Below, one piece after another: positions 12,122-40,469 of a stretch of 64,000 nucleotides of DNA. Below the pieces are notes generated by a model. The model searched no databases. It saw only the letters and a program-made list of their open reading frames with translations, and was not told the DNA's origin. This DNA is from Trypanosoma brucei (taxonomy: Eukaryota): positions 352,001 through 416,000 of the forward strand of contig AL929603.2 in NCBI GenBank assembly GCA_000002445.1. Direction: 5' to 3'. The position numbers and the translations under genes are program-made. Every line of letters starts with the position of its first letter. Position 1 is the first letter of the stretch.

Positions 12122-12156
<35 letters not shown>

Positions 12157-19892: not shown

Positions 19893-19901
19893 TATTTTTA
19901 A

Positions 19902-19954
<53 letters not shown>
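19893..19954 (+). repeat. (TTA)~20 microsatellite in an intergenic spacer
   Basis: Perfect ATT/TTA triplet run. Confidence 0.9.
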
Positions 19955-19956
<2 letters not shown>

Positions 19957-20355
19957 TTGCTCCTCATCTACATCTTTTGTCGTTGTTATTGATGTCTTTT
20001 TTTTTTGTCTCGTGGAGGGCAGCAAAATAATAATTAAAAAAAAAATAATAATTTTAAAAGAAAAAACAAAAACACAACACAGAGCAAAAAGGAAAAAAAA
20101 AGAAAGAAAATGGTAGCGGGGAATCGTGTTGGGGTTTAAGCGAGAAAAAAAAAATAATAATTCCAAGCAACAGCACCAACAATATTAGTAGTAGTAATAA
20201 AAACAAACAAAAAACAAATATCTCTTTTTTTTTTGTCTTCTTAAAAAGTTGTGTGTATAAAAAGTTCCTGCACGCGGATGTGGACCTCCTTCCTCGTCCC
20301 ACTTCTCGTATTTTATTACTATTATTATTGTTATGATTGCCATCATATATATTAC

Positions 20356-20393
<38 letters not shown>

Positions 20394-22199
20394 CCTGCAC
20401 ATATGCTCCGAAACATATATGAATAAATACAAAAAAAACTAAATATTTATTATATATTTATACATAATTGTTTTCATCATGTTTTAACACTTCCAATATA
20501 AATGTGAGTGATTTTATTTTATTTTTTTGACGTGTACGTGTACGTGTATTCAATTTCCTTCTAACGAAATGAAATGAATGCCCTTGAAAAAGAGAGAGAA
20601 GTGAAATAAAAAAAACAAAAAAATTGAAGTAAATGGGAGGGCTGAAGGGGTCGTGTACTCCTAATTTTAATTTTAATTTCTTTTGTTTTGTGACTTTTTG
20701 TTGTTGTTTTCGTCGTTTTCTTTCCTTTTCTTTTTTTTGTTAAAGCACCCGACGCCGCGTGTAATGACGCAGTGGGAAGCAGTGGTGTAAACAATTCCAA
20801 GAGAGCAAAGGAGTTGAAAAGTGGAGCAACAATAAATAAATATAATTTGTAAAATTATTGTGTGACGAAACAAAACAAAGCACAACAAAACGGAAATAAA
20901 ATATATATGTATGTAGATATATATATATATATATATTGAGTAAATGAGTGAATACCCCTCTTTTTTTTTATTTTATTTTTTTGAGTGTGAGGAGAGAGGA
21001 GAAGGAATATTAATGAAGGAGCGGATTGTTTTCTAGTTAAACAAAAAAAATTATATAGAAACTGGTAGAAAACACACGGGATGGAAATTGAGCGGTAAAA
21101 ACTTGAGAAGAGGACGAAGTTTTAAGAAGGATATGCGAGCGATGTACATTTCATTTTATTTTTTGATTCTCTTTTATTACTATTATTATTTTTACTTTAC
21201 TTTTTTTTCTTTTTCTTTCTCTTTTTATATCTTATATGATTATTAATATTTTGCCTCTTTTTAATAGAGGTTCATGCAGCGCATTCGCCTTCGTTGGTGC
21301 AGTTCTTCATGATCAATTCGTAAATCTCAACCCGCCGCGTCACTTTTTTCCTCCCATTTTGTTGTGTTTGATTTGAAAGGGGGGAATGGGGTAAAAATTA
21401 GAAGGAGAGCCATTGTGTTGTTCATTCGCAAGTGTGTTGTTATTAAAATTCAACTTATATATATTTCTTTATTTTTCTGTATATTTTTAACGCATTTTTA
21501 CTTTTAAATAAATAAATAATATATATATATATATATATGACTATTGATTTTCTCCTCCTTATTTGGTCGTTGTTGATACTTGTATTTCTTTTTTTTTTTT
21601 TGTGTGTGTGGTTTGTTCGTAAGTTTAACTCATCCTCTGTTACCATTACATATGTGTGTTTGTGTGAAGGAGTGCGATAGAGCGAGAAGGAAACAGAGAG
21701 TGTGTTTGTGTGCATTTGAAAGAAAGACAAAAATAAAAAGCAAAGCGAAGAGGGTGAGAGTATATATATATATTATTATTATTAAACCAACAATAAAAGA
21801 GGGAAAGTGGGGGAAGGTAATGGAAGTGTGAAATGTTGTCGTGCATGAAATTTCGAAGATATGCGTACGATCTAATTTTATGTATTTGTGTTTGTTTACA
21901 CGCGTGCGTGACATAAGTAAATGGAAGTGTGGGATGGGACATGGACAAATAATTGCCATTTGAAATATTCGTTAATTGCATCCCACCCTGTCCAATTCCT
22001 TTTGTGGCGCTCCGTGTCCTGCTCAACTCCATCCCCTTTATTTTATTTCTTTTTTGTCGTTTATTTTATTTTATTTCAGGCCCATTGTCAATTTCATTTA
22101 TGCTCTACGTGTTAGCTCTACTAATGACTTTGCAATGTCTTCATGTTTCATAACCCTTATTGGTTTTATCATTTTTACTGAATCACTTACTCGCTGTAC

Positions 22200-22262
22200 A
22201 TCACTCTGTTTCTTCTTCTGTTCTTATGTTTTTTCTTTTTTGTTTATTTATTTATTTATGAA
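22200..22262 (+). promoter_or_regulatory. Pyrimidine-rich tract in the spacer upstream of paralogue C
   Basis: tttcttcttctgttcttatgttttttcttttttgtttatttatttatttatg. It is one candidate among several, because the 5' UTR could also be long. Confidence 0.25.
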
Positions 22263-22877
22263 ACAACAACAACTACAATCATGAACAGGTCTTAAAGTCA
22301 CTCCAGGGGTGTGAAAAAAGACAAAGTAAAAGAGGGAAAGAGAAATAGGTCTTTTCGCTCTTTTTTTTACTTTTACTTTTGTTTATTTTTCTTTTTCCAT
22401 TTCCATAAAGGAAACTGTCATTTATACGAGAAAGACAGGGGAAACCCAAATAAAGGAGGGAAAAGAAACGTGATCATCGAAAAACAAAATAATAAATCTT
22501 TTTGTCATTGTTTCTGCCTAACCTTTAGCGAGGTTATATAACGCTAAAGTGCAGAATCAGAGAAGAGGCTGAGGGGGAAAAAAAAAGAAAAAAAATACCG
22601 AAACGGGGAAGACAAAAGAAAAGAAAGATAATAATAATAATAATAACAAGAACAAGAACAAAAACAGGGAAGCAAGAGAACCGAGTGAGGAAAAGGGTAA
22701 CTTTGTGACAGGAAGGACCTTACATCAAAGGGGAAACACCTTTAGAGAAGAAAACGTTGCTGTAATTTCGCATTTGCCACACGGAAAAGTGTAGCAGACA
22801 AGAAAACGAAACAAGCAACAACTACGAGCACAAACACAACAAACGGCAAACAGCGACGGTGACGGTGACGAACAAAT

Positions 22878-24872
22878 ATGGGAGGTGCGCCTTCTCGGGA
22901 GGCGACAGTTGTGTACTCGTATCTGCGAGGTACGTATGAAATTGGCCTCATTCCCCTTACAAGTGCTTTCTTTGGCCGGCCGTCAGGACGGGGGGAACAT
23001 GAAGGGGAAAATGTGCTACGGGGGCATTTCTTACAGATGCGGGAGGATCTCTTCGCGGCCTGTACACTCCCAACCCGAAACAAAGTGCTCTCATGGACAG
23101 AAATCGTGCCCAATCGATTTACGGGGGAGGACCTTGACGCGTTTTTGGAAATTGTGGACAAGCGGCTCTACCCAACAAATGCGGCAATGGTAGCAGATAA
23201 AAATTCTCCACTTCTCCCGGTCCCATGTGCTGTTTGTCTTGTCTGCAAAGATGGTCGGGAGCGCCGTGGCAGTTTTCGCTGGCGCGGGCGGAACATTGTC
23301 ATCATCGGTTACTTTGGATGCATGGATGAAAAGCTTGATGCGGCTTTCAAAACAGAGAAACGCACGCCACGCCAGGGGATGTACAGCATCACTGCCGCTG
23401 TATTTCCCTCTATTGGTGATCGTACGTTTGACCGCGTTCTTGCCTTAGCACCAGTGATGCTTCGGGGGCAGTTTGTGGGATCTGTGTTGCAACTCCGTAG
23501 GGGAGGAGGGGAATTCGCAACGCCCTTGAGTGAGCGTGGGGAAATGGTTGATGTCTCTAGTGAGGCTCCTTCGCTCGGAGCGGGAATTGGTGGAGTGGTA
23601 GGGCAATCAGATGGATTGATTCATGAGGATTCTGCAGTTGACAGCGCCTTCGAAATGTTCGTGGAGCGCGTCTCCCAGATGTCTGTATTCGTTGAGGTGG
23701 TCTCGGATAACTACTCGTCACTGAAGTCTCTAGTGGAAAATGTTGCCTTCATCCAGATTCATACACAGGCGGAACCTAAACAGTGTACGCTTGATCTTCC
23801 TCCAATCGTTCAGAACGCCTTTAATCGCACTACAACTGCGAGCAGTTGCGAGAAGAAAGCTGACGCGGAGGGTCACCATGCAGAAAAGTCGCCTCCACAA
23901 CGTTCATCTGCCATGGAACAGGGGTCTTCTTGTTGCACCGTGCAAGGAGTAAGCTGCTCGTTGGAGCGCGATGATTTAACCGATCTGTCCAGTGTGGAGC
24001 CTGAAGGTTCATCTCACTTAAGTAAAGTGCCAACGGAGGATGGTGGTAGTTTTCACTTCTGTACAGAGATAGTTCGTGTTCATTTCAACGAGAGATATGT
24101 GTCCCTAGCCATCCAGTGGCTCTCAAGTTTCTTCCGAAAACCAACCTTGCTTGAGAATGGTTATTGGGTACACTACTGCCTGAAAAAGGAAGAGGAAGTG
24201 ATACGCAGAATACTCTGCCATCGCGATACTATTGTCTCCGGTTGGCGAACGTCTCACCCCGAACTCGCTAATCAATACATGGGTGACGGCACGGACAAAC
24301 TACTGGAGCACGTACGGATCCTTCAGCACGAATTACAACAAGCCCGCAAGGCTGCAGAAGAACCTACACTGCGTAAAAAAGCCAGTACGCCTCCCACTCT
24401 GCCGTGTCCGAATACCACTTCAATGGCAGTGTTGGCACCACCCCCTCCGCCTCATGTGATGCCGTACGCCGTGCCTCCTCTTCCGTCACCGGTTTATTTT
24501 GTTCAACAGCAACCTGTGGGAAACCCCATGTTTGTGTCGTTGCTTCCTTTTCAGCAAGTGCAGCAGGTTCCACAAGTGCAACAGATCCCACAATTTCAGC
24601 AGGTGCCGCAAATTCAGCCACTGCAACAGATTTCGCATGTGCAGCAGATCCCTCAATTGCAGCAAACCCAACCGGTACAGTCGATATCGCATGTTCAGCA
24701 GATTTCGCATGTGCAACCGATTCATCAAGTGCAGCAAATCTCACATGTGCAACCGATGCCATTGTACCACCTCCAACCACCTGAATTACAACAGCCCTCG
24801 GTTTGTTATCTTCCCTTTGGGGATGGAGGAGCTCTACCCCCAAGTTATGTCATTCCAAGCTCGCTGTCGTAG
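22878..24872 (+). CDS. Paralogue C of the same family
   Basis: ATG start MGGAPSREATVVYSYLRGTYEIGLIPL. Shared motifs are PVPCAVCLVC, IIGYFGC and GDRTFDRV. The C-terminus has degenerate heptad-like repeats (QQISHVQ / QQIPQFQ). Confidence 0.75.
   Translation: MGGAPSREATVVYSYLRGTYEIGLIPLTSAFFGRPSGRGEHEGENVLRGHFLQMREDLFAACTLPTRNKVLSWTEIVPNRFTGEDLDAFLEIVDKRLYPTNAAMVADKNSPLLPVPCAVCLVCKDGRERRGSFRWRGRNIVIIGYFGCMDEKLDAAFKTEKRTPRQGMYSITAAVFPSIGDRTFDRVLALAPVMLRGQFVGSVLQLRRGGGEFATPLSERGEMVDVSSEAPSLGAGIGGVVGQSDGLIHEDSAVDSAFEMFVERVSQMSVFVEVVSDNYSSLKSLVENVAFIQIHTQAEPKQCTLDLPPIVQNAFNRTTTASSCEKKADAEGHHAEKSPPQRSSAMEQGSSCCTVQGVSCSLERDDLTDLSSVEPEGSSHLSKVPTEDGGSFHFCTEIVRVHFNERYVSLAIQWLSSFFRKPTLLENGYWVHYCLKKEEEVIRRILCHRDTIVSGWRTSHPELANQYMGDGTDKLLEHVRILQHELQQARKAAEEPTLRKKASTPPTLPCPNTTSMAVLAPPPPPHVMPYAVPPLPSPVYFVQQQPVGNPMFVSLLPFQQVQQVPQVQQIPQFQQVPQIQPLQQISHVQQIPQLQQTQPVQSISHVQQISHVQPIHQVQQISHVQPMPLYHLQPPELQQPSVCYLPFGDGGALPPSYVIPSSLS
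24590..24765 (+). repeat. Degenerate ~21-nt tandem repeat (consensus near CAGCAGATTTCGCATGTGCAA) inside the 3' end of paralogue C, about 8 copies, encoding QQISHVQ / QQIPQFQ units
   Basis: Repeating CAGCAGAT(T/C)(T/C)C(G/A)CA(T/A)(G/T)TGCA units are visible in the sequence, with a matching periodicity in the translation. Confidence 0.7.
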
Positions 24873-27800
24873 TGATACATAGTGAGGAAATAAGAAAAAC
24901 AAAAAAAATGGATGAACGTGTGTAGTTCCATACCATGACTAGAGGAGCTGGAACGGCTCGTTCTTGTTCTTTTGATTTTTTTTCTTCCTTTTTATAAAAT
25001 TTTTAATTTTGTTGTTTTCTTTTTCTTCCCTGTTCTTCCTCTTGAAATGGTTAATTACCTTCCACTAGGATTGCTGTTTTTTGCCCTCTCAGAAGGCGTT
25101 TTTTTTTCTTTGTGCGCTCTGCTCGCATATTCGACATGTCCATCCTTTTTAGTTTTGCTTATAAAATGAGGAAAAAAGAAAATGAAGACTCGTTTCTCTT
25201 TATGTTTTTGTTCCTTCTGTTTGTGTGTGTTTGTTGTTGTTGTTGTTTTTGCGTGATTTTATGTGTGTGTGGGTAGTTGTTTTTCTTTTTCTTTTTTTTT
25301 TGCTGCTTTCGAAGCATTACGACTTGTAGCTGAGCGTTAAAAGCGAATGATTATTATATTATTATTATTATTCCCTCCTCTTCCTACTTGTCTTTGTTCG
25401 GCGGGTGTGTTTCTCCGTCGTGTTTCCTACTTTTTTTTTTGTGTATGTGTCTGTGTGTGTCTTTTTTTTTTTCCTGCTTCAAATTTGCTGCAGACAAATA
25501 AACAGAGAAAATAAAAGAGATGGTCATCTTCTCTTGTTGTTGTTTATTGTGATTCATTTTTTGTTTGTTTGTTTGTTTGGGGGAAGTCCGCGGATATGTA
25601 GAACAATTATGTTTTTCTTTTTTTTTTTGCTTAAGAAGTGGGAAGTAGTTTTTTTTTTTTCTGCTTTTGGTTGTTTTGATTTCCTGTTTTTGGTTGTCTC
25701 AGCCTTGCGTCCATTTGGATCAAGATAACACACAACTTCTTATTTGTCTTGTTTTTTGTTACTTTTTCGTTTTTTTATACTTTTTTTTTTCTCTTTTACT
25801 ACTTTCTCTTCCTGTGTTCGACTTTTTTTTTTTTTAATCTTTGTTTTCTTTTTTTGTTTGTTTATTTATCAGTTGTGCTGTTCTGCTTCATCTCATTTCT
25901 GCGGCTTTTCACACTTTTTTCGGTCATTTTTTTTTTACTTTGATTTACTTTTTTTGTCTGTTTTTTTTTCCCCCTTTCCTCCCTCCCCCCCTTTTCCTTT
26001 TCGGTGTTTTTTATTATTGTTATTATCATTATTATTCTTACGCCTATGGCTTTCATTTATTACTGTTTCACTGTTATTCTACACAGTGTTCTGCTATATC
26101 CCTTGCGTCGCAGGGAGTGACAACACATTTATATATATATATATATATGAAATATACAAATAATTATAAATATATATATATATATATATGGTCGTGTCTG
26201 AAATTGTATGTGCCTGTTCAGGGAGGAGCGTGAAAAAAAGAAAAAAAAGAAAAAGAAGGGGGAGGGAGAAAGAAAAAAAAGAAATAAGGAAGGAAGGAAG
26301 GAAGAAACAGAGAAGGAACAGGAAAGAAAGGAAAAAGCAAATAAAAAATGTACACATAAATACGCACGTCTGCATGCGTTTGTTTTGTGGTTTGTTGAAT
26401 ATTGAGTGCTTGGTTGAGTTAGAAACAAAACAAAAATAAAAATAAAAGGTGATGGAGATGGAGATGGAGATGGGGTTGGAAACTACAAAACAGACAGACA
26501 TGCAATCATGCGTGTGGTGCGTATTTATATTTATTTATTTATATATATATAAATATATATTTATTGATATATATTTTGACTTATGCACTTAGGCATATTT
26601 ATGGTGAAAGAACAACAACAACAACAACAACAAAAACAAAGTACAAAAAAGTTCTTTTTTTTTTCTTTTACTTACTTACTTAATTTTTCCTTTTGAGACG
26701 CGCACGCACACATGCCTCGCGTGCAGAAAAGAGGTTGCTCCAGTCGCCCCACCCCGCTGGAATCCGTCTGTGAAGCTTCAGGCTGCTGTTTAAGTTCCTG
26801 GTCGTAATTTTTTTATTCGTGTCTCTTCTTCTTTTTGTTTTTCTTTTTTCTTTTTTTTAAATTCCATTTTATTCGGCTGGGCCGCGCATTGTTTTTGTTT
26901 GTTTTTTGTTTTCTTGTTTGTTTGTTTCGGGTCTTGTATAATTTTAGTTGTGTTGTTGTATCATTTGTTTGTTTGTTTTTCAAACCTCCAACACGTGTTC
27001 CTTTTTTTTTTATTTATTTTTGCGTCCTCATGAGACCCCGCACCGCACCGCCATCACACAAATAATAAATAATAACAATAATAATAAAAAAAGAAAGACA
27101 AAAAGAAAAAGAAAAAGGAAAAGAAAAGAAAAAATATATATCTTTTGACATGAACACACATGCCGGCGCACGGTCGCCTTATTCCAACATAAAGAGAGGG
27201 GAAAAGGAGGAAAAAAAAAAAGAAGAAGCGTATTCCCCACTGGGAGAAGTAAATCCAAGTAAAAACACGAATAAAAAAAATATAACAAATGAATGGGAAG
27301 TGGGAAAAAGAAAGGGAGGATGAGGAAAGTGAAGAAAGAAAGGAAGAAAAGAAATAATTTTCCTTTTTTTTAAAAAAAAAGGAAAAGGAAAGGAAAGGAA
27401 AGCGGAAGAAGAAGAAGAAAAAGGAAATGAAATTTAAGTTTAAATTTAAACGAAGAAAATGGAATGATATAAAGATGGAAGTGTAGTGTTTGTTGCGCAT
27501 ACGGCGGTATGGGAGAGAAATTTGAGAGGAAAATTGATTAAGTGAATTAAATAAGAAGAGAAGGATTAATAGATATATATATATATATATATACATATGA
27601 TGGAAGGGAATGATGTGAAACGTGAAACTCGTGCGTTTTTTTTGTGTGCTTGTTTATATGTCTTTCCTTGTTTTTCTTTTTGTTTTGACTTGTCTCGCTG
27701 TGGCGTGACGGGAGTTTGTAAAGGCACTTTTTCCCCGTCATTATTATTGTTATTATTATTATTATTATCTATTGTTATTAGTATTCCTATTCCTATTTCT

Positions 27801-29314
27801 ATTCCTACTACCGCTATCATTATTATTATTATTCATACTATTCCTATTGCTACTACTATGATTATTATTATTATTACTATTATTATTATTGTTATTGTTA
27901 CTATCATTACCCCTCGTTTGTATTTATACTCATGAGTACAAATACATCCACTATTCACACATTTATATATATTTATATATTTACATATATATATTTATAT
28001 ATAAATATATTTCTGCTTGTGTGCTCGTTTCTTGTGTACTGCACTGGAATAGGAGGAAAACAAAAAAAAGCTGCAGATAAAGTGAAGAAAAGAAATTTTT
28101 TTTATTATGGAGGGGAGAGGATAAAAATAGCAGTGATCATAATGAGAACAATTTTTTTTTCCTAACAGAACAAAGCAAAAAAAAAAGTGCGTAATTAGGA
28201 ACAGTGAAGAGGAGGGGGGGGGAAAATAAATAAATAAATAATAATAATAAATGAACAGCACCGCATGAAAACGTGTGAAATGTTGGTGTCTTTTTCTTCC
28301 TCCTTTTTTGGTAAAGGAGTGTTTCCACGTGTTCCATACTTCCTTTCCAATATTTTTCTTGCTTTTTCTTTTTTTTTCTTTTCTTTTCTATCCTATTTTA
28401 TGGTTCATGTTTGTTTTTTTCATTTTCATTTTCATTTTCTCTCTTTCTCTCTTTCTCTCTCCCTCTGCGTGTGTGCGCTCATTTGTGTGTTTGGACTTGG
28501 ACTTGGACTTGGATATGACGTTATTTTAAGTGCTTTTTTTTCTTTCTTTTCTTTTTTCTTTTAAAATATTTGGTTGGTTGCGGTGTTTTTTCGTTTTGAT
28601 AAATTGGGGCTTAAGTACGAAAAAAAAAAAGGATGACGATCAAGTAAGTGAATGAATTAACAAAAGAAAATAAAATGAAAATAAAATAAAATGTATCAAA
28701 CAATTTTAAAAAAAATGATCGGAATGGTGAATTCTTTTTCTTTTTTTTTTCTTGATATATACTTCACTTCGATTTCTTATTTTTATATCAGTTATTATTC
28801 ATACAAAAAAAAAGTGAAAATAAAAATGTCGAAAGGAGGAACCCTGAATGACGGGAGCAACTTCCGTGATTTTGTCTTTTTTTTTCCCACTTTTCGGGAA
28901 CAACAACAACAAAAAGGAGAACAGAAAATGAAAAAAATGAAAAATAAAATGCAAGTGATAGTGATAATGATGATGATGATGATGATAAACAATAGTGATC
29001 ATTAGATCTTTGATTTTGAATTTGAAAAGGAGAAAGAATTGGTAATTGCCAAGCAAAAGGTTGGGACATTGCCGGTTCAAGGGGGAGGAATAACAAAAGT
29101 AAGTTAAATTCAAATGAAAAAAAAAAGGAGGGGGGAAAAAGTTGAAAGGAAAAATATTGGAAACGTATCCACAAAGTTTTTTTTTGAAATTTCCTCTTCA
29201 TTTATCTTTTCACCATTTTATTTAATTTTTATTTTGTATCATTACTTCCTTTCTGTTGCCTCATTATCTCATCTCACATACACGTTTCTACTTTTCTGTA
29301 TTTTCATATTTAAA

Positions 29315-29352
<38 letters not shown>

Positions 29353-30376
29353 TATAAGCAGCTGAAAAAAGATATGTTTATAAATTAATAGATATAAAAT
29401 ATATATATATATATATATATTTGTATCCTTGTGTGTGTGCACGTGGATTTGTGTAAGTATGTATTTATTACTAAAACATATGAAATTTCAAAGAAAAAAC
29501 AAAAAAAAGAAGAGAAATGTAATACAGAAAATAAAATAAAATAAATAAAAGGGAGGCAACCCCCGGTGTGTTTTTGTGCACATAAAATTGTGAAATTTTG
29601 TAAAAAAAAAAAAGGAAATTAAATAGCGAATAGTCATGAATATATGGAAATTCGCACACATGAATACTATCAGCGATATCATTCTTCATAAATGTTGACG
29701 GCACTGAAACACTTTTGTAGTGTGAGATACAAGTTTTTTTTGTTTTTTTTTTATTTAAAGGGAAAACTGAAAAGGAGGAAAGCGAAGAAAAAAAAGAGAG
29801 AAGAAAGACGAGGCTGCAGAAACAATACTCGTCCGAGTGTGAATGTGATAGAAATGGATCAATTTATTGTTATTATTATTATTTCTATCTCTATGGTTGT
29901 TATCATTATTACGATGATGATGATGATTACTGTTATTGTTACTATTATTATTATTATTGCAGGCTGCATCGAACTGTCTCCTCCAGCACATGTGTTTGCA
30001 TTTGTTTCTTCTTTTTCTTCCTTTTTTTTTCTTCCTCTTTCTCCACTGCGCCGTCAGGTGAAGTGATATAATGAATGCACAGTTGTGCAAAGAAGTGTGA
30101 AATAGAGGTGGGGTGATTTTTTTTTTCCCTTTGAAAGCCATTTTTTTTTCCTTTTTGCTGTGTTTTATTTCCCTTTTCGTTTTGTTTATGTTCCTTCCCC
30201 TCCTTCATACTATCTTCAATTTTGTCTCTTTTTTTTTGCTTTTTTTTGTCTTTTCTTTTATTTTTATTTTCCAGTCTTTACTTCATTTAAAGTTGTTATA
30301 CTTTTGCTACGTGTTACACGTCTCTTGGCGGATGCCCACGCCTAATTTACAAAAAAAGAAGAGAATACAAAATATA

Positions 30377-30416
<40 letters not shown>

Positions 30417-33400
30417 TATTCAAAAAAATGTAAACAAAAGGACAAAGTTGTACAACTTGCTTAATTACATTATTTATATGTTGGTGCGGAATTTACAAAT
30501 TTGCTGCTAACTGAACGCAATACAAAAACATCGAATTCCTCAGAAAGAAGAAAAAAAACAAGGGAGTTAAGAAGAAGGAAATTTGTTGGGTTGGTTTGAA
30601 ATGAGACTAAAATGCTGCGAGTGGATTTTTTTTATTTTTATTAAATCCACAACTGGGTGTTTTGTTTTCTGCTGCTGTTCCTGTTGCGCCTCACATTTGC
30701 ATTTAAATGCATTTTATGAATGAGCCTTATTATGTTTGGCATATTCGATGTTTTATATGCTGAAGCTTTTCCTCTTTTATTTCATTTTATTTCATGCTTA
30801 TTTTCGCTTTTTATATATTTTTGTTCTACAACATGTGTTTATTTATATATAAATATTTATATTCATAGGTGATAAGCCTTAACCGTGCCGGGACAATTTG
30901 AGAATCGCCTTTTTTTTTCAAGTTGGTTTTTTTTTATTTAAAAAAAAAGTTGTTGACTCCGTTGGAGATCCTTACCCCGATGCCTTTGGGCTGTGGCGAG
31001 GGAAGAAGTGACAAATCACATTAATACAAATAGTTTATTTATTTATTTTTTTTGTAAAAGAATAAAAAATAAAAGAAGAAAGTGAACAAAAAAGAAACAG
31101 AAAAACCGAGGAAGTGGGTACTTCCGGGAAATAACAAAACACATAAAATTCAAACGAAGCACATAAAACACGACCATGTGTTTGTGTGTGTGTGCTTTCT
31201 TTCTTTTTTTCTTTCTTTTCTCTTTTTCTTTTTCTTTTCTCTTTTTCTTTTGTGATACTGTGTGGTTGACTTGGTTTTACAAATTAACACATGCTTATGC
31301 AACATTGCTATGCTGTCTATTTTGGTGGTGGGTGGGGAGATTTTTTTTTTTGGTTTTTTATGTATTTCAAATATTTTCTTCTTTTTCTTTTTCTTTTTTG
31401 CTTTTAATTATTCATCTGAACTCTTTGATGAATGGCGTGTATGCTTTTTCTTTTTTCTCTTTTTTTTTTCCTTCCTTATGTTGCGTGGGGTTGGAAAATA
31501 AAATAAAGAAAAAAGAAAAGGGACAAAAAGAAAACCATGAGTTTTACTGATGAAATAATAAATGGTGGCGATGAAAGTGCTGTGAGATATAAACAAACCA
31601 AACAAGCAAACAAATAAGTGAACGAATTAATGAAATGAATAGGGAAAAAAAAAGGAAAAAAAAACTAGAAAAAAATACGAGCAGATGATAAAAGTGTGAC
31701 GAATTTAAATAAATATATTATATTTATTTAAATGTATATTCATGCATTTTATGTTATTGTTGTCTGTCATGTGGCTGGATAAAAACTCCTATATTAAGAA
31801 TGCTTCCGGGCATATCTGTGTGTGGTTTTTTTTCTTTTTTCTTTTTCTTTTTCTTTTTCTTTACACCTTTTTAATGAGCGCTGTAACATTCCATTTATTC
31901 ACTTAAATTGTTACTTTTGATGTGTTTCTGTACTTCTTTTTTTTTTTTTTCCTCCTCCCCCTTCCTTCCTTCTTTTCTTTTTCACCCTTAAACTCATTTG
32001 TGCTGAAAGCGCAGCATAAACAAATAAAGGTAAAGATAAGGTGAGGTAAAGGAAGTGAAGAAAAAAGGAAAAGTGAGATTGAAGATCTTTTTTTAAAAAA
32101 AAAGATTGAGAGGGACACAAGAAGAAAAAAAAAATAGGTTGGAAGGAAGTGAGATACAAACTAAAAAAAGAATGTGTTAATGAATTTTTTAGGGTTGTAA
32201 ATTTTTTCTCTTTTTCTTTTCTTTTCTTTATTCTGTTGTTGTTGTTGTTGTTTTCCTGAAAGGAGCTTTGACGAATTTTGAACTCCGATGGGCCAAGCGT
32301 AAAAAAAAGGGGGAAGGGGAAATTAAACGTATATTTATGTGTAGTCACTACAATTTTTTCTTTTTCTTTTTTGTCTTCTTTTGCCTTGTTTTTTTTCTCT
32401 ATTTCTCATAAATATTCTTCAAAGATTTCTATTCTTCTTCATTTTCATTTTCTTTTGTTGGTTTAAACAAGCGAGAAACCAAAAAAAAATCAACGACTGT
32501 TGTTAATATTTTTCCGATTCTCTCTCTCTCTCTCTTTTTTTGTTTTTTTGAAAAGAAAACAAACACTTGTTTCATCTTCAATCTTCCCTTACTTTGTATT
32601 TTCTTCATTCAATTGAAAACTGCTCCCCCCCTTCCCCCCTTCATGAACGCTCTGTTGTTATTATATGAAGTGCTTTTTTTCTTTTTTTTTTCCTTGATTT
32701 AAAACTTCCTCATGTTTCCCACCCACCTCCTCCAAATTTTAATTTATTATGTTTATTCTGAAATGTTTCGTCCTGCGCTGATTGCTTGAAATGTTTTTGT
32801 TTTTGTTTTACTCCCCATATTCTTCAAATGTTCCATTCTTATCCCTTTTCCCTACTGTTTCTTTTTCTTTTTCTTCTTTCTCTCCCTCTCTCTCTCTCTC
32901 TTGTATTTGTAATATAACATTGCACATCATATATATTATATATATATGTATAATGTGTGTATGTGTTTCTGTACTTGTTCCTCGTATTAAAATATAACAA
33001 GATACGCTGCAGTACAATTTTTTTTTGGTGAGTGTAAACCAAAAAAAAAAAATAAAATAAAATAAAATAAAAGAAAGGGTGGAGGGAAATAATTATTTAG
33101 CGTGCCTTCCGTTAGCAAAGAAAAGTAATAGGTAGTAGAGACACAAGTACACAGTTCATATAAGCATATAAACATACACGTCACAAAAAGCTCAAAGGGA
33201 AAAGGATTTTTTTTAAAAAAAAAGAGAAAAGAGAAAGGGATTTATATTAAAGGAAAAGGTGAACAACAACAACAACAACAACAAAAAGGCGAAAGGAAAA
33301 GGGATCGGCCCTTCGACTCACGGGACTTGGAGTGGAGATAAAAGGAACTGCGGGATTTACGTATAAAACATTCGTTCCTTTTATTTTTTCCTTTTCCCCT

Positions 33401-33540
33401 TCACCCCCTCCTCCTCCTCCTCCTTGTGTATACGAACACAACTGCGAGGAATACTTATGGTTTAGTTGTTATAATTGTTGTCTTCGGTGTCGTTTGTTAT
33501 CATTATTTTTTTTATTGTTAGTTCGTTGTGAGCTTGATTG

Positions 33541-33542
<2 letters not shown>

Positions 33543-33579
<37 letters not shown>

Positions 33580-33586
33580 CGTATGT
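33543..33586. repeat. (TA)~22 microsatellite about 120 nt upstream of the kinase CDS
   Basis: Perfect TA dinucleotide run. Similar runs occur at about 5711-5742, 10707-10729, 12121-12155, 29328-29349, 30379-30413, 38977-39004 and 40426-40466. Confidence 0.9.
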
Positions 33587-33633
33587 GTGTTTCTTGTTTT
33601 TTGTAGCTTTGGACGGTGTTGTACATTTTCCGG

Positions 33634-33690
33634 ATCTTTTTTTCTTTTTTCTTTTTGTTTTGTCCCCTCCCCTCCAAAAAAAAAAGAAAA
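33634..33690 (+). promoter_or_regulatory. Polypyrimidine tract followed by an AG; candidate spliced-leader trans-splice acceptor region for the kinase mRNA
   Basis: ttttttctttttgttttgtcccctcccctcc, then A-rich sequence with an AG about 25 nt before the ATG. This is the typical kinetoplastid arrangement. Confidence 0.4.
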
Positions 33691-33709
33691 ATCGTGTTGG
33701 TGAATTACC

Positions 33710-36700
33710 ATGGTTTCTAAAGAGGAGAATGCGAACATCAAAAAGGGGGAGGAAAGCGACGCATATTTGCAGGAGCGTGGGATAAATAATATTATCGAGA
33801 ACCTTTTGCACGATATCACAAAATGTAGACCGGATGATCACTTGGAGTTTATGAAAGAGTGGTTGGCGACTCGAGAAACTGGAAAAAAAGAATTTTCTGA
33901 TGGGAATGAAGCGAAGCAGATGATCGAATCACCACTTGAACGCGAGGCGACAGTTGGGGAAACGAGTGAATTCATTTCGGAAACAGTTCCCGAATTTGCC
34001 TTTTTCCAACCCGTGAAGAAACCATCAACGGTGTCGTGGGCGCTGGGTGCACGCGGTGTTGACAGCAGTCGTGCATTATTTACCTCCTCCAGAAAATCTC
34101 CGCAACCAATCGACTCGGTTAACACCACATCATCATCTTCAGGCAGCTCGGCACTTCAAAACAATTTAAGTGTTGCTGCTCAAGGCGTTTCAATGTGGGT
34201 CCCTTCCGCTGCTCCTCTTAAGGCATCGCCAGCAATTCCATCCAATCCATTACCTTTATCACCCACAACATCAGAAGGGCTCGTGAGTTGTGGAGAGCTG
34301 CCGTCGTCAGTGAAAAAAATAATAGAAGGAGTGCGGGGACTGTCGCCAGCCGACCACACAGCAGTAATAGCGTTTATTGACGGTTTGGCTAACAGAGCAG
34401 CAACCACACGATTAGGAAGGAGAAAGTTGTCAAATACGCGGGGATCATTCGGGGTTAATTTCAACGTTGATAGTTGTGGTCCCACCATGAGCGAGGGAGC
34501 CGTGCCACCATGTATTAGTTTGTTAGTGGATGATGACGGTAATGTGGGAGGGGAACGTAAACTCTCTTCGGTTCAATTACAACAATTAGTTGGCGATGCC
34601 TTAACAACAAGCATGATTGCAACTGGGGAAATATTCATGGAGGAGGAAAGAGCGGGTCAGTTGTCGGCCTCCACCACCCAAGGGGCGAGCACATTAGGAA
34701 GGAGGGTGAAAAAAGGAAGTAACTTGCAATTGGCACGTTTTACCGATTGTTTTTCCATGAGTGATCAGATTCTTCCTGGTTCGAACGGCGGCGTCGGCAG
34801 CGGCTCGGGTCCCAATGACGGAGCAACGGATTTGTCGCAAATGTTTTCGAGTGTTGATGAGTTTGCTGCCGTTCCAGTTAGTTTTATTCAACAATATATG
34901 CAACACAGTCGGCTCTCCTCAACCGTTAGTAGGGTTGATAGCGAGTACTCTTCGGGGGCGACCGTCAGCAGTGAGGATGAGGTAAGTGTGTTGCGTAAAG
35001 CTTTTCGGGCATGTAAGCGCTTCTCCGACTATAGCGAAACAGAAATAGAGGTACTCGCTCGTAATGCGCAAAGGTTGGAACTGCTTGCTGGTCACACATG
35101 TAACTTCAAGGACTCCATTTTCTACGTGCATAGTGGTTTGCTCCGCGTAGAGAACAATGAAGGTGTTCTTCGTGAACTTCCGGCAGGAACCTTCCTTGAT
35201 GCTCAATCCTGCGAGCAGCTTAATGATGCTAGGGAGCCGCTCGAGGTGCGTGCAGTATCTGATGCACTAGTTTTGATGTTGAAGGACGAGGCATTGGGAA
35301 CCATTCAGGAGAACGAAAAAAAACTGAAAAAACGGATGTTCGTAAGATGCCTGCAGAAGTCACCGCTTTTTGCAACAGTCCCGCTGAAACTTCTGAAAAA
35401 CATAGCCAATTATATGCATGTGCGAACGGTGGTCCAGGGAAAGGTATTGTTACGGAAAGGAGAGCATGTGGATTGGCTTTCAGTAGTTATCAGTGGCACG
35501 GTTAGTAGAGTAGTAGCCGGTGGCAATGGGAATCATGAAGTATTGCCGCAGAATAAGCAGAAAGGTGGCCCATCATCCTGTGCTGCTCCGTACATTTTAC
35601 CACCCGAATCCCAGAGCGGATTTGAGTTTGGTGAGCTTGAACTTCTGTTTAACTCGCCGATGCTTACGGATGTTGTTGCAACGACACCGGTAACTCTGGC
35701 ACGAGTTTGCACAGCATTTGTACACTCACTGCTACCCCACCAAATAATCAACGATATGAAATACGCTGTTGCTACCAATCCATCAGCTGGACCTCTTTTG
35801 ACCATAGCACCGGATGCAGTTCGTCACTCAGTTAAGATGTTTATGGAGCATTACTGTCAGTCAAAACGGTTGGGTGGAAGCCGACTGCGCAAAAGAATTA
35901 GTGTTAGCTCAACCGGGACAAATTCTACAAGAGGATTTGCAGATAGCGTCAGATGTGGAGTACTCGCATCCGGAGCCAAAGCGAGTGGCGGAGCAAACAA
36001 TCTCAAAGTGAGTTCGGCGGGAGAGATTGTGTATGCTGGAAAATGTAATTATTACCGCTTTCCTATAGCTGCTCTTGGGTTGGGGAACACAGTAGTGGTT
36101 GCCGTTGTATCGGATGGTACAATTATCCGCTGGAATGATAGCGCCGAGCGCATCACGGGGTTTTCGAGGCAGCAAGTGCTTGGGCACAGCGTCTTCTCTT
36201 CACTCACTACCGATTCTGCCCGGCGCTCCATGCGTGAGCAGTTGAAACTCGTGCGAAACGTTGCTGGGAACTGGAACCAGTACGTCAGTGCGGGTCTTTC
36301 TTCTCCACAAGTGTATCGTTTTCGTCAGGCGTCTGGAACACACTCCGTTGGGTTACTTTTGAGTGTTATTCCTTCTTCTGCGGGGTCCAATGAAGATGTT
36401 TTGTTACTTGTCGGGCGTGAAGCGGATAACAATGCCATGACAAGTTACGTTGAGGATACCACCCGGTGGTTGAATGACGTTCTGCGGCCGCAGCTGTCGG
36501 CGTTCCGTAAACGTGTGTGTGAATATGAAGAAAGGAAGTGGAATATTACTTTGGAGGAAGGCGCAAAGCTTCATGGCTATGTGGAGGCGTGTAACCAACT
36601 TATGGACCGTTACATGCGCCTTGCTAACCTAAACAAACATTCAGTAGATGCTCTGTGGAAACCGGTGCGGATGCAAAATGTGTTACGACAGTTTCTGCAG

Positions 36701-38938
36701 GAGGTGACACCTCATGTACAGCGGGCTGGGAACAAGCTTACCACAGACGTTGTGGCAGGGCCCAAGGGCGAGGTATTTCTTCATGTGGAATACGTGCTGG
36801 ATGTACTGCGTGGAATGGTACTTGATGCTAACAAGAATAGACCCAACTATCATATGCATATCGTTGTTGAGGCTGTTTTGCCCACCACTATGCATCAGGA
36901 TAGTACAACAATGCCCTGCCAGGGTGAAAAGTCCACTTCCTGTGACTTGGCATTTCACTCCGTCTTGGATCAATCGCGAGTGAGTCTCGACACACCCCAC
37001 TGCACAACATCGCAAATAACCGCGAGTGAAGACAGCATTCGACAACGCTCTGCTCACTCTCCCCGGCAATTAAGTAAATGGCCCTCATATATGCAGCTTA
37101 TTCGGTTTATATTTACGATTAGCGAAAGTGAGTCCGGCCTTTCGATGGCGAATGATAACACCAGTGGTGGGGCAGCTACCACCCCAAGTGGTGAAGTCCC
37201 GCGTAGCAGCAAAATTCATCATAGTTTTTATGCAGGAAAGGAATGTGGAGACCTTGTTGCTGCGATGGGAGGTGAGGTTTTTTCCGAGCAACGTGGAATG
37301 AACGGTTCGGGTCATTGTGTTACGGTAGAACTACCGCTATTACCGACGCCTTGGGAAGAGGAGGACGACGAAGATGAGGCACCTACATCTTCTACTACAG
37401 GACCGCCATTTGCTGTTATTCTTGCTGACAAGAATGAGAAGGAGCGCAACAGTGTCTGTAAATTGTTGTGGGCACGTCGGCACCCTGTTTTTTCTGTATC
37501 GTCATTGTCGGAAGTGATGATGAGGATTGAAAGCCCGGACATTGGTCTTCTCATTATAGATCCGTGTCATTTAGATATGACAGAGGGGGAAAGCAAGACA
37601 TTTGCCAAAGCTCCCTACCCATTCAACATGGAACATGGGGGAAATCATTTCGTTGTCCTTATTTACACCGAAGACTTCGACGACTGGAGGGTGCAAAAAA
37701 TGAAGAAGTGCAGTCACGTGATTGAGTTGCCCAAGCCAGCAACTACTTCACTGCTTCACTCCACTTTGTATGAAGCGGAGCGTATGGTTATTCGTGTGCG
37801 AGAGTACGAGGAGCGTGTGGCTCAAATGAGGTCTGCCTTTCGTGAGTTCCAAGCTGAGAGGTATGAAATGGGTAAAGTATTGGGCAGAGGATCGTATGGT
37901 GAGGTTTATGAAGTCGTTGATCGACTCACAGGTGGAAAGTTAGCCGTAAAGCGCATGACTCTTAGCGATGGTTTATTGGCTGCAGATGTTGCTGAGGAAT
38001 TTCTGTCTGTGACATCTATGCGGCATAAAAACATGATTCATTACTTCTATTGTGAGCAAGAGAGTGAGACAGTGCTGCGGTTATATATGGAGTTGGCATC
38101 TGGTGGGACTCTTAAAGATAAGATCCGTCAACATGGTGGACCGCTTCCGCTCCCAACTGTTGTGCAATACCTTGAGGATCTTTGTGACGGACTCGCTTAT
38201 ATCCACTCCAATTTGTTCGTGCATGGGGATATTAAAACTGCGAATGCGCTAGTTGATCAATATGGTCGTGTTAAAATTGGTGATTTTGGTACCGCAAAGC
38301 GTCTCAAACGAAAATCGGAAAAACTTTACAAATTTGTCGGAACCCCGCGTTTTATGGCACCCGAGCTCATTAACGCGGACGCCACACAGGGACATGGCTA
38401 CGATCAAAAGGGAGATATTTGGTCACTTGGATGTGTTGCTTTGGAGTTAGCGACGGGGAAACCACCATTTTGGCATATTGAAGAGGCACAAGGTATAGGT
38501 ATATTCAACTTCCTGATTAATTTGAAGGAAACACCAGATTTGTCGATAATCGAACATAGCGATCCTGACTTTTATGCATTTGTGAGGAGGTGCCTCCATG
38601 TTGATCCCAAGGAGCGACCAACAGCGCAGGAGTTATTGACAAGTAATCTCTTTCAGCGTGCGGGGACGAGTGTGAGGGATATGAGGTTGGCGCAGCAAAT
38701 ACAAGCTGCAACGAAGTTACATGAATATGCGGCGCTTAAGGAAGACAATAGTGACGATGAGAATGACGATGACGATGACGATGAAGATGATGATGATGAC
38801 GATATGTTCGTGGAGTGTGATTTTCCGTTAGTGTTCTCTGGAGTTGGCACATTTCCAAATGGCGACCAAAATGTTGCGACGAGTAACCGTGGCAATATTG
38901 ATAACGAAAAGAAAGGAACTGCAAAATTGAGTGGGTGA
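33710..38938 (+). CDS. Giant multidomain Ser/Thr protein kinase (1742 aa): RIIa-like docking domain, two cNMP-binding-like folds, PAS, histidine-kinase-like core, receiver-like domain, STE-type kinase, poly-Asp tail
   Basis: ATG start. Kinase subdomains are clear: LGRGSYGEV (Gly loop), LAVKRM (VAIK), HGDIKTAN (catalytic loop, non-RD), KIGDFGTAK (DFG), GTPRFMAPE (APE). Other domains are listed below as separate features. Confidence 0.9.
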   Translation: MVSKEENANIKKGEESDAYLQERGINNIIENLLHDITKCRPDDHLEFMKEWLATRETGKKEFSDGNEAKQMIESPLEREATVGETSEFISETVPEFAFFQPVKKPSTVSWALGARGVDSSRALFTSSRKSPQPIDSVNTTSSSSGSSALQNNLSVAAQGVSMWVPSAAPLKASPAIPSNPLPLSPTTSEGLVSCGELPSSVKKIIEGVRGLSPADHTAVIAFIDGLANRAATTRLGRRKLSNTRGSFGVNFNVDSCGPTMSEGAVPPCISLLVDDDGNVGGERKLSSVQLQQLVGDALTTSMIATGEIFMEEERAGQLSASTTQGASTLGRRVKKGSNLQLARFTDCFSMSDQILPGSNGGVGSGSGPNDGATDLSQMFSSVDEFAAVPVSFIQQYMQHSRLSSTVSRVDSEYSSGATVSSEDEVSVLRKAFRACKRFSDYSETEIEVLARNAQRLELLAGHTCNFKDSIFYVHSGLLRVENNEGVLRELPAGTFLDAQSCEQLNDAREPLEVRAVSDALVLMLKDEALGTIQENEKKLKKRMFVRCLQKSPLFATVPLKLLKNIANYMHVRTVVQGKVLLRKGEHVDWLSVVISGTVSRVVAGGNGNHEVLPQNKQKGGPSSCAAPYILPPESQSGFEFGELELLFNSPMLTDVVATTPVTLARVCTAFVHSLLPHQIINDMKYAVATNPSAGPLLTIAPDAVRHSVKMFMEHYCQSKRLGGSRLRKRISVSSTGTNSTRGFADSVRCGVLASGAKASGGANNLKVSSAGEIVYAGKCNYYRFPIAALGLGNTVVVAVVSDGTIIRWNDSAERITGFSRQQVLGHSVFSSLTTDSARRSMREQLKLVRNVAGNWNQYVSAGLSSPQVYRFRQASGTHSVGLLLSVIPSSAGSNEDVLLLVGREADNNAMTSYVEDTTRWLNDVLRPQLSAFRKRVCEYEERKWNITLEEGAKLHGYVEACNQLMDRYMRLANLNKHSVDALWKPVRMQNVLRQFLQEVTPHVQRAGNKLTTDVVAGPKGEVFLHVEYVLDVLRGMVLDANKNRPNYHMHIVVEAVLPTTMHQDSTTMPCQGEKSTSCDLAFHSVLDQSRVSLDTPHCTTSQITASEDSIRQRSAHSPRQLSKWPSYMQLIRFIFTISESESGLSMANDNTSGGAATTPSGEVPRSSKIHHSFYAGKECGDLVAAMGGEVFSEQRGMNGSGHCVTVELPLLPTPWEEEDDEDEAPTSSTTGPPFAVILADKNEKERNSVCKLLWARRHPVFSVSSLSEVMMRIESPDIGLLIIDPCHLDMTEGESKTFAKAPYPFNMEHGGNHFVVLIYTEDFDDWRVQKMKKCSHVIELPKPATTSLLHSTLYEAERMVIRVREYEERVAQMRSAFREFQAERYEMGKVLGRGSYGEVYEVVDRLTGGKLAVKRMTLSDGLLAADVAEEFLSVTSMRHKNMIHYFYCEQESETVLRLYMELASGGTLKDKIRQHGGPLPLPTVVQYLEDLCDGLAYIHSNLFVHGDIKTANALVDQYGRVKIGDFGTAKRLKRKSEKLYKFVGTPRFMAPELINADATQGHGYDQKGDIWSLGCVALELATGKPPFWHIEEAQGIGIFNFLINLKETPDLSIIEHSDPDFYAFVRRCLHVDPKERPTAQELLTSNLFQRAGTSVRDMRLAQQIQAATKLHEYAALKEDNSDDENDDDDDDEDDDDDDMFVECDFPLVFSGVGTFPNGDQNVATSNRGNIDNEKKGTAKLSG
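33758..33880 (+). other. RIIa-like dimerisation/docking domain (aa 17-57)
   Basis: The stretch LQERGINNIIENLLHDITKCRPDDHLEFMKEWLATRE resembles the PKA RII N-terminal DD helix pair (e.g. ..[30 protein letters not shown]). Confidence 0.5.
34982..35749 (+). other. Two tandem cyclic-nucleotide-binding-like folds (aa 425-680); the second retains FGELELL but lacks the phosphate-binding Arg
   Basis: Domain 2 reads FEFGELELLFNSPMLTDVVATTPVTLARV. It has a canonical beta-barrel/PBC layout with Glu present, but the PRAAT Arg is replaced by PMLTD. Domain 1 is more degenerate (FLDAQSCEQL). Confidence 0.55.
36032..36409 (+). other. PAS domain (aa 775-900)
   Basis: The stretch VVVAVVSDGTIIRWNDSAERITGFSRQQVLGHSVFSSLTTDS ... 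VGLLLSVIP...DVLLLVGRE shows the classic PAS sensor pattern. Confidence 0.65.
36443..37348 (+). other. Degenerate histidine-kinase core: DHp-like helix with His replaced by Asp, plus HATPase_c-like N-box and G2-box (aa 912-1213)
   Basis: WLNDVLRPQLSAF matches the H-box sHELRTPLnAi, with Asp where the phospho-His sits. VRMQNVLRQFLQEV matches the X-region. HVEYVLDVLRGMVLDANKNRPNYHMHIVVE matches the N-box (RL.QVL.NLl.NAiKyT..G.I.V). GDLVAAMGGEVFSEQRGMNGSGHCVTVELPLLP matches the G2/G3 region (GLGLaIv..lve.hGG.i.v.S..G.Gs.F.f.lPl). These are by-eye matches only. Confidence 0.45.
37400..37744 (+). other. Receiver (CheY-like REC)-like domain (aa 1231-1345)
   Basis: FAVILADKNE matches beta1 and the acidic pocket. 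GLLIIDPCHLDMTEG matches beta3 with a phospho-acceptor-position Asp. VVLIYTED matches beta4 with the conserved Thr. HVIELPKPA matches beta5 with the conserved Lys-Pro. Confidence 0.45.
37862..38659 (+). other. STE/MAP3K-like Ser/Thr kinase catalytic domain (aa 1385-1650), followed by a poly-Asp tail at 38747-38803
   Basis: All core kinase motifs are present. GTPxxMAPE is typical of the STE group. HGD replaces HRD. The acidic run DDENDDDDDDEDDDDDD is encoded by GAT/GAC repeats. Confidence 0.8.
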
Positions 38939-38974
38939 AATGGACGATATCGTATGACTTGGTGTACATAAATA

Positions 38975-39006
<32 letters not shown>

Positions 39007-40423
39007 GCGTGTGTGTGTTTGTGTCGTTTCTGTCTTTAGGGGTCCCGCAATGAACGAGGGAAATTTTAGCAACATGTCCTCATGTTTTTTTTTATTATTT
39101 GACTCTGATAATTGTGAAAAGATGCAACCGCGGAAGCGGCGCAACTTGTGCTTTACTTTTTTTAATTCTCCCCTCCTTTGTCTTTCCTCAATTTTTTTTG
39201 TTTATTTATTTAATAACTTATTTACTTGTTTGGGCTTTTATGCAGGGCAATGGTGGAGCAAACATTGAATAAAAAGTAATTGTTAATTAGTCAAATGAGG
39301 CACGCGTATGTACATTTGTGTTTTTATATATTATGAAGGAGTAATATGTTGCTTAGAGAGAAAAAAAAAAAGAGAGAGAGAGAGAGAGGCCTCTTACATG
39401 CAGGTTCCAAGCAAATTAAAAAGATTTTCCACATATGAAAAAAGAAAAAAGAAAAAAGAAAGAAAGGAGAAAACTTCGCAGTTATGCGTAGGTGGTATAA
39501 TTTATTTACGTGAGTGCGTGGGGAAAGCGGAGGGGGGGGAAGGGAAAATAATAAAAAGAATGAAGTTTTTTTTTTAGCTTTTGTCTTTTTTCCCCCGTTA
39601 TCGTTTAGTTATTTACGGGATTGAGCGATTACATTTTCCTAGTTGCGCTCGCTTACACAAATAAATGAAGGGATGTAAAACAAAACAAAACAAAAAAGGA
39701 AAAATAATAACAAAAAAATAGAATAGTAGAGGAAGTCAAACATGTGGTGGATGGTTATGCGGTGTCTTTTTGTTTTTAATTTTTACCTACACGGTGGTTA
39801 TTATAAGTTTTTTCGTTTGCTTTGTTGAACCCCATGTGAAATGATCGCAACATGCGGGCGTAATATATAAATACATAAATATAAATAAAAAATAAATGAA
39901 AAAAAATGGTTTTGGAGTGTTTGCGTTTATATATAAAATGCGGATATCATATTGTCCGGAAACACAGAACTTTCTTTTATATATATATATATATCTTTTT
40001 TTTTTGTAAAGAAAAAAAATTGTATGGGAGCTAAAAGGAGAAGGTTGACCCCGTGAGATCGCGTTATTTTAAACATAAATGAGCGAAACCGGAATGAAAG
40101 AAACATGTGTAACAATAAATTATAATGAGCGGAGCTGAACACATCCAAAAGTCCTTTTTTTTAAAAAAAAGGGAGGGAAGAAGAGTAAATAAATAAAATT
40201 ATTTATTTATATAAAAAAATGTAAACATGTAAATAGATAGGAATAAAAGAGCGAAAAGGGAAGAATTAAGAGAAGACAGAACAGAACACATTTCGGGTTG
40301 TATATATTTTTTAGACGTGAGTTTCGCACCTTTGAAAGGTATTTTTAAATAGGAAATTGCTTTGTTTGTTTGTTTGTATGTTTTTTTTCTTTTTTTTAAT
40401 ACCCCCCTTTGAAAGAAACATAA

Positions 40424-40469
<46 letters not shown>

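Follow-up and report, generated by a model that had tools for sequence, protein, structure and literature searches.

The stretch of Trypanosoma brucei brucei TREU927 chromosome 1 considered here, a window of 64 kb in whose coordinates all positions are given, contains an interval of 8837 bp between the stop codon of Tb927.1.1500 (24872) and the ATG of the protein kinase gene Tb927.1.1530 (33710). With a probability of roughly two in three, this interval, hereafter gap C, is transcribed non-coding sequence in one RNA polymerase II polycistron, consisting of a very long 3′ untranslated region (UTR) of Tb927.1.1500 (predicted at ~7.7-7.9 kb), a short processing zone at 32858-32902, and the 708-nt 5′UTR of the kinase mRNA. 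The first-pass annotation had offered three explanations for the gap, namely long regulated 3′UTRs, unannotated non-coding RNAs and decayed insertions. The first is the best supported of these, by the short kinase leader, by mid-gap poly(A)+ reads without ribosome footprints, and by the regulated, messenger ribonucleoprotein (mRNP)-associated gene that precedes the gap. The 5.6-kb and 5.3-kb spacers after the two related genes upstream, and the 3.7-kb kinase 3′UTR, are sequences of the same kind. The features in and around gap C are:

22878..24872, + strand: Tb927.1.1500 (paralogue C), coding sequence (CDS) of 664 aa; exact match to XP_001218852.1 / CAJ16128.1
24873..32750, + strand: putative very long 3′UTR of Tb927.1.1500, ~7.7-7.9 kb; distal end predicted
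27597..27935, + strand: pseudo-open reading frame (pseudo-ORF) named 'hypothetical protein, unlikely', 112 aa, XP_001218854.1, (AUU)n-rich; exact look-up
32858..32902, + strand: 45-nt polypyrimidine tract, likely trans-splicing signal for the kinase mRNA
33000..33709, + strand: AG splice acceptor (33000-33001) and kinase 5′UTR (33002-33709), from the published length and the sequence
33710..38938, + strand: STE-group protein kinase Tb927.1.1530, CDS of 1742 aa with cNMP-binding, PAS and kinase domains (Pfam)
38939..42635, + strand: presumed ~3.7-kb kinase 3′UTR, derived from the published mRNA length

The kinase transcript accounts for very little of the gap. Its 5′UTR has a published length of 708 nt (Antwi 2016 Table S2, TriTrypDB data), which places the start of the 5′UTR at 33002 (33710 minus 708), and an AG is present at 33000-33001, an exact fit. 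Since the mRNA starts 708 nt before the ATG, it covers only the last 8% of gap C and cannot explain the gap. The 45-nt tract at 32858-32902 is the nearest long pyrimidine run upstream of this acceptor; the next AG comes 97 nt after the tract, for which little pairing is predicted (0.07), and three shorter runs (19-22 nt) are found further downstream, inside the 5′UTR. By the usual coupling, the same tract would also set the upstream poly(A) site. Trypanosome polyadenylation sites of the upstream mRNA are defined by the downstream trans-splicing signal, according to PMC9380746, and on that rule the Tb927.1.1500 mRNA is expected to end near 32.5-32.8 kb, with a 3′UTR of ~7.7-7.9 kb. The distal end of the putative 3′UTR would thus be set by the polypyrimidine tract and splice acceptor of the kinase gene, the poly(A) site itself being predicted. 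In the mechanism that we propose, the precursor would be trans-spliced at AG 33000-33001 and the Tb927.1.1500 mRNA polyadenylated a short distance upstream of the 32858-32902 tract. The kinase 5′UTR contains three upstream AUGs (33457, 33575 and 33583) and, at 708 nt, far exceeds the kinetoplastid norm of under 100-250 nt.

The kinase gene also provides, within the window, a standard of comparison for long T. brucei UTRs. Its published filtered mRNA length of 9634 nt equals 708 + 5229 + 3697, and the two published lengths together imply a 3′UTR of ~3.7 kb, which occupies nearly the whole of the following 3849-bp spacer. This downstream region has a GC content of 0.31 and the same low-complexity repeats as gap C. 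The strand-specific 4-mer profile of gap C correlates with that of the kinase downstream spacer at r = 0.95, as against 0.85 for the reverse complement of the spacer and 0.26 for coding sequence.

The 4-mer profile and the cumulative GC skew, which climbs almost monotonically through the window, support the direction of transcription better than pyrimidine content does. The + strand had been described as pyrimidine-rich throughout, and this did not hold up: gap C has 53% pyrimidines overall and 39-71% per 500-bp window. Pyrimidine runs of at least 12 nt number 49 on its + strand versus 37 on the - strand, and the two upstream gaps contain more purine runs than pyrimidine runs. Every credible gene of the window lies on the + strand, in a single polycistronic unit.

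RNA from within the gap is documented by the read data, which are raw counts from Antwi 2016 Table S4 (Jensen and Silicotryp libraries). The mid-gap pseudo-ORF XP_001218854.1 is, by accession order, Tb927.1.1520. In the Jensen bloodstream libraries, 133 poly(A)+ fragments and 4 ribosome footprints are listed for Tb927.1.1520, and 925 fragments and 3460 footprints for Tb927.1.1500. Per nucleotide, the pseudo-ORF therefore has ~0.85 of the RNA density of the Tb927.1.1500 CDS and ~0.007 of its footprint density. Poly(A)+ reads without footprints indicate that RNA exists 2.7-3.1 kb beyond the Tb927.1.1500 stop codon and is untranslated. In the other libraries the ratio of Tb927.1.1520 to CDS reads is lower or inconsistent, with low counts.

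The gene upstream of the gap is developmentally regulated. Tb927.1.1500 encodes a conserved protein of unknown function that is enriched in the bloodstream-form mRNP proteome (false discovery rate 0.0076). Its ribosome footprints in procyclic versus bloodstream forms number 73 versus 3460 (Jensen) and 129 versus 4757 (Silicotryp), and its poly(A)+ fragments 288 versus 925 and 51 versus 348, respectively. Judged from neighboring rows, library size accounts for only ~3-fold of this difference, and the skew is weaker in mRNA reads than in footprints. The product is accordingly an mRNP-associated protein translated mainly in bloodstream forms. The putative 3′UTR (31% GC, low-complexity, rich in (UA)n, poly(U/C) and poly(A/G) tracts) could act as a platform for RNA-binding proteins that would confer bloodstream-form-specific translation and stability, and its length may hold mRNA abundance low.

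No coding signal is detected in gap C. Its GC content is 0.31 and all 300-bp windows are at or below 0.40, while genes have medians of 0.44-0.54. Over six frames, the highest codon-usage log-odds for 100 codons is -3 bits; in real genes, nearly all in-frame windows of this size score 21-86 bits, with one gene dipping to 2. As the first-pass annotation had stated, the gap contains only low-complexity pseudo-ORFs, and every ORF of at least 50 aa is translated T-, A- or TA-rich DNA. None of the ten most complex stop-free six-frame segments comes near a curated Pfam cut-off.

These data bear directly on the proposal that the gap is a decayed gene or an old insertion, such as a fourth paralogue or a degenerate retroposon, and essentially junk. 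Gap C exceeds the other two spacers by 3.5 kb and is also longer than the orthologous gap of T. melophagium (5.2 kb), as such a remnant might explain. However, six paralogue sequences, drawn from T. brucei, T. cruzi and T. melophagium, detected no decayed paralogue in any gap when used as tblastn queries, no window has gene-like GC or codon usage, and the six-frame segments resemble neither Pfam families nor the orthologous gaps of other species. A six-frame comparison of the two upstream spacers across species returned merely two short non-syntenic low-complexity matches of 16 and 30 aa. The repeats in gap C are simple (TA)n, (ATT)n, polypurine and polypyrimidine tracts only. No residual similarity to a gene or dispersed repeat was found, though no dedicated ingi/RIME/SIDER library was searched and highly degenerate retroposons could escape. 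The orthologous position in T. cruzi and T. melophagium is likewise multi-kb and gene-free. With every one of these tests negative, a decayed gene or insertion is unsupported, and we regard it as very improbable.

A cluster of small structured RNA genes processed from the polycistronic precursor, like the small nucleolar RNA (snoRNA) of the grumpy long non-coding RNA (lncRNA), would also leave a gap without coding potential. T. brucei snoRNAs do sit in intergenic regions of polycistrons and many are not in Rfam, and some stretches of gap C fold better than shuffled sequence (150-nt windows; mean z -1.1, 25% below -2). The covariance-model scan, however, gave no Rfam match at gathering thresholds, and no transfer RNAs were detected. 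A permissive scan recovered only hairpin matches, 23-93 bits (mostly more than 60) under the cut-offs, in (TA)n or pyrimidine:purine palindromes. Long-period tandem repeats of the type seen in snoRNA clusters are absent from gap C, as are blocks conserved with T. congolense, T. vivax, T. cruzi or T. melophagium. The folding z-scores are uninformative, because (TA)n and segregated pyrimidine and purine tracts, being self-complementary, trivially outfold their shuffles. Hidden structured RNA genes are, in our estimation, hardly credible. One local structure may be recorded here: at 31444-31521 a 34-nt polypyrimidine tract and a polypurine tract downstream of it form a hairpin (-31.3 kcal/mol, z = -4.4, with 0 of 200 shuffles as stable), and this region is the source of all the best sub-threshold Rfam hairpin matches.

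The suggestion of unannotated non-coding RNAs therefore falls for structured RNAs and snoRNAs and stands, as a possibility, for internally processed, spliced-leader-capped RNAs. On that explanation gap C is a mosaic, in which the Tb927.1.1500 3′UTR is only a few kb long and internal tracts yield independent capped and polyadenylated lncRNAs, constitutive or stage-specific, of the kind described by Guegan et al. 2022. Those authors list 1428 mostly intergenic, low-GC T. brucei lncRNAs with normal splicing and polyadenylation motifs. Processed intergenic RNAs without an ORF are a recognized result of alternative site use, such fragments arise from long 3′UTRs upon loss of DRBD18, and the ratio of mid-gap to CDS reads varies between stages and datasets. 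Against this, the Jensen bloodstream poly(A)+ density at 27.6-27.9 kb is near that of the CDS, as a shared transcript predicts, good polypyrimidine tracts within 3′UTRs are normally unused according to the literature, and neither a structured nor a conserved element was found in gap C. Low coding potential and poor ribosome association fit a lncRNA and a 3′UTR alike and do not discriminate between them. We consider the mosaic unlikely but a serious contender; it is partly compatible with a long Tb927.1.1500 3′UTR, as alternative processing of the same region.

Several observations weigh against a single long 3′UTR. Each of the 49 + strand pyrimidine runs in the gap (21 of them at least 20 nt long) is followed by a nearby AG, so that internal processing of gap C is physically possible. 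The read counts cover a single ORF of the gap, which ends at 27.9 kb and is assigned to Tb927.1.1520 by accession order. In the Silicotryp procyclic library the reads of this ORF are high relative to those of the CDS (26 versus 51 raw), possibly because it lies on a separate RNA or because mapping in low-complexity sequence is noisy. The absence of cross-species sequence conservation means that no specific regulatory element is supported. Finally, the 7.9 kb after Tb927.1.1500 contain a single copy of the RBP10 destruction motif UAUUUUUU where 5.7 ± 2.1 are expected, a depletion of only ~2 standard deviations. This scarcity fits bloodstream expression weakly. Nine copies follow Tb927.1.1470 (5.1 expected), and three follow Tb927.1.1420.

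If the Tb927.1.1500 mRNA does extend to ~32.7 kb, its many internal polypyrimidine tracts would have to escape use or be masked, the role that DRBD18 plays for RBP10 and DRBD12. Good tracts inside 3′UTRs are reported to be normally unused, and DRBD18 is required for their silence. Masking by pairing with nearby polypurine tracts, an idea suggested by the hairpin at 31444-31521, was considered and rejected as a general property of the internal tracts: the mean paired fraction is 0.43 for 20 internal tracts and 0.38 for 9 presumed functional ones (Mann-Whitney p = 0.90).

The proposed arrangement has well-described counterparts. Trypanosome 3′UTRs of at least 5 kb have been reported and are concentrated in mRNAs for RNA-binding proteins and kinases. 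The 3′UTR of RBP10 (Tb927.8.2780) is 7.3 kb long, the DRBD12 mRNA is ~8.4 kb, and the 3′UTRs of ZC3H20, ZC3H21 and ZC3H22 each exceed 4 kb. Like RBP10 and DRBD12, Tb927.1.1500 would combine a multi-kb, low-complexity 3′UTR containing many internal polypyrimidine tracts with a developmentally regulated gene for an mRNP or RNA-binding protein. RBP10 shares with Tb927.1.1500 its bloodstream specificity, and in both cases regulation affects protein or translation more than RNA. For RBP10 and DRBD12, however, full-length mRNAs have been seen by Northern blot and single-molecule fluorescence in situ hybridization, regulatory fragments have been mapped and DRBD18 dependence has been demonstrated, whereas the Tb927.1.1500 UTR is predicted and its protein has no recognizable RNA-binding domain.

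ZC3H20, ZC3H21 and ZC3H22 (Tb927.7.2660-2680) resemble the present locus in being three related genes in tandem, each with a spacer or 3′UTR of more than 4 kb. The number of RBP10 motifs is linked to developmental timing in that array; here the copies after A, B and C number 3, 9 and 1, and the link between motif and expression is only tentative. Those genes encode CCCH zinc-finger proteins, in contrast to the domain-less family described below, with its N-terminal MGxxPS motif and Q/P-rich sequence. The lncRNAs of Guegan et al. 2022, for example grumpy, share with gap C a low GC content, a lack of coding potential, poor ribosome association and a position between genes of a polycistron. They differ in that each is a separate and shorter transcript bounded by a spliced-leader site and a poly(A) site of its own; grumpy carries a snoRNA, and none was found by Rfam in gap C. 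At the present locus, three related genes in tandem each precede a spacer of 5.3-8.8 kb, and the kinase that comes next has a 3′UTR of 3.7 kb, the same pattern as in RBP10, DRBD12 and ZC3H20-22.

The sizes of the spacers were as first described. The gap after A measures 5.6 kb (10253-15864) and that after B 5255 bp (17623-22877), and spacing elsewhere in the window is shorter: the nine gaps that adjoin neither a paralogue nor the kinase gene range from 254 to 1974 bp. The independently assembled genome of T. equiperdum OVI contains a collinear gap C of 8813 bp with 97-99.7% identity, which shows that the gap is not an assembly artefact. An apparently shorter gap C in T. b. gambiense (5.3 kb) was discounted, as it is due mostly to a run of 100 N that replaces 26214-29378 in that assembly. 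Separately, ~568 bp at 31858-32425 are missing in T. b. gambiense DAL972 and present in T. equiperdum OVI. The breakpoints of this indel fall in polypyrimidine tracts, making it an indel polymorphism inside the putative 3′UTR. The two upstream spacers and their flanking genes are:

8261-10252, + strand: Tb927.1.1420 (paralogue A), CDS; from published gene order
10253..15864, + strand: spacer after A, putative long 3′UTR of Tb927.1.1420 plus 5′UTR of B
15865-17622, + strand: Tb927.1.1470 (paralogue B), CDS; from published gene order, ATG from orthologue alignment
17623..22877, + strand: spacer after B, putative long 3′UTR of Tb927.1.1470 plus 5′UTR of C

The gene order Hikeshi-A-B-C-kinase is kept across Trypanosoma, and the spacers are gene-free and, in most species examined, long. 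Long gene-free spacers occupy the same positions in T. equiperdum, T. vivax, T. congolense, T. melophagium and T. cruzi. The comparison with T. cruzi called for by the first-pass annotation revealed no extra gene in the orthologous gap, which is likewise a multi-kb gene-free spacer. Spacer lengths in other species compare as follows, with the T. brucei value included for B to C:

A to B: 5081 bp in T. vivax; 3356 bp in T. rangeli; 2370 bp in T. conorhini; ~2-2.6 kb in T. cruzi
B to C: 5255 bp in T. brucei; 5216 bp in T. vivax; 5102 bp in T. melophagium; 5093 bp in T. cruzi; at least 6966 bp in T. congolense; 2691 bp in T. rangeli
C to kinase: 5215 bp in T. melophagium; at least 6864 bp in T. 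cruzi (with N-runs)

Sensitive blastn detected no collinear DNA similarity between the T. brucei spacers and those of T. congolense, T. vivax, T. cruzi or T. melophagium, only non-collinear low-complexity matches. The B proteins of T. brucei and T. congolense are ~73% identical over their full length and 89% over the N-terminal two-thirds. The persistence of spacer length without sequence conservation is the only mildly unusual feature of the locus. Because four of the B to C lengths are so alike (5255, 5216, 5102 and 5093 bp) without DNA or six-frame similarity, it is conceivable that length itself, and not sequence, is under selection. The three ancient paralogues would then carry length-tuned, sequence-free tails that attenuate expression kinetically, by co-transcriptional decay or by delaying 3′-end formation, and set low, differentially timed expression of an mRNP-protein family. 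We regard this as a speculative idea and quite doubtful. Two orthologues in these comparisons deserve mention. Paralogue C of T. vivax (SOPI01000403.1, 17110-~19000), which is not among the called genes, was located by tblastn with 36% identity over 490 aa. Paralogue B of T. cruzi CL Brener (2349-4907) is annotated with 852 aa and aligns to T. brucei B only from ~residue 191, which suggests that its annotated start is over-extended.

The genes were assigned through published tables, including Fadda 2014, in which the order is Tb927.1.1400 (Hikeshi-like), 1420, 1470, 1500, 1530, 1540 and 1550; A, B and C are thus Tb927.1.1420, Tb927.1.1470 and Tb927.1.1500. Seven proteins of the window match TREU927 entries exactly. 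The published Tb927.1.1530 phosphopeptide AGQLSApSTTQGASTLGR (PMC2716717) is found in the translation of the 33710-38938 ORF. A homology search with the N-terminal 1030 aa of the kinase returned only the kinase itself.

The description of A, B and C as paralogues stands for B and C, which are 37% identical over ~200 N-terminal residues, and is loose for A, which matches B only over the first ~50 residues (E = 4e-4). All three begin with MG(A/G)xPS(H/R)(D/E) (8261-8290, 15865-15894 and 22878-22907), and the glycine at position 2 is compatible with possible N-myristoylation. Their C-termini are long Q/P-rich low-complexity tails, and no Pfam domains were found in any of them. A homology search with B gave matches in Trypanosoma species only. 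The mechanical ORF call for B begins at TTG 15763; the conserved start is ATG 15865 (MGGIPSRD), where all orthologues align. Relative to the neighboring kinase, Tb927.1.1470 appears to be higher in the other life-cycle stage, opposite to Tb927.1.1500 (Fadda 2014 Table S1, raw counts in two sheets), a tentative observation. The C-terminal coding part of Tb927.1.1500 includes an 18-nt tandem repeat at 24555-24751 that encodes QQ(I/V)(P/S)(H/Q)V-type repeats. The T. b. gambiense and T. b. equiperdum orthologues are 652 aa long versus 664 aa, a difference consistent with varying copy number of this repeat.

The locus leaves current understanding unchanged: it holds no hidden gene or new element, and the phenomenon is already well described in T. 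brucei. In trypanosomes, transcription is not controlled gene by gene, and mRNAs that encode regulators are given very long regulatory tails. If the long 3′UTR reading is correct, the locus, with its three ancient paralogues in tandem and a multi-kb 3′UTR on each, would be one more clear example of this known class, and the ~7.8-kb tail of Tb927.1.1500 would be among the longest, comparable to that of RBP10. Because its three genes are related, differ in the number of RBP10 motifs that follow them, and include a pair (B and C) whose stage regulation seems to run in opposite directions, the locus would offer a compact test bed for how long UTRs give stage-specific translation and how dozens of internal splice signals stay silent.

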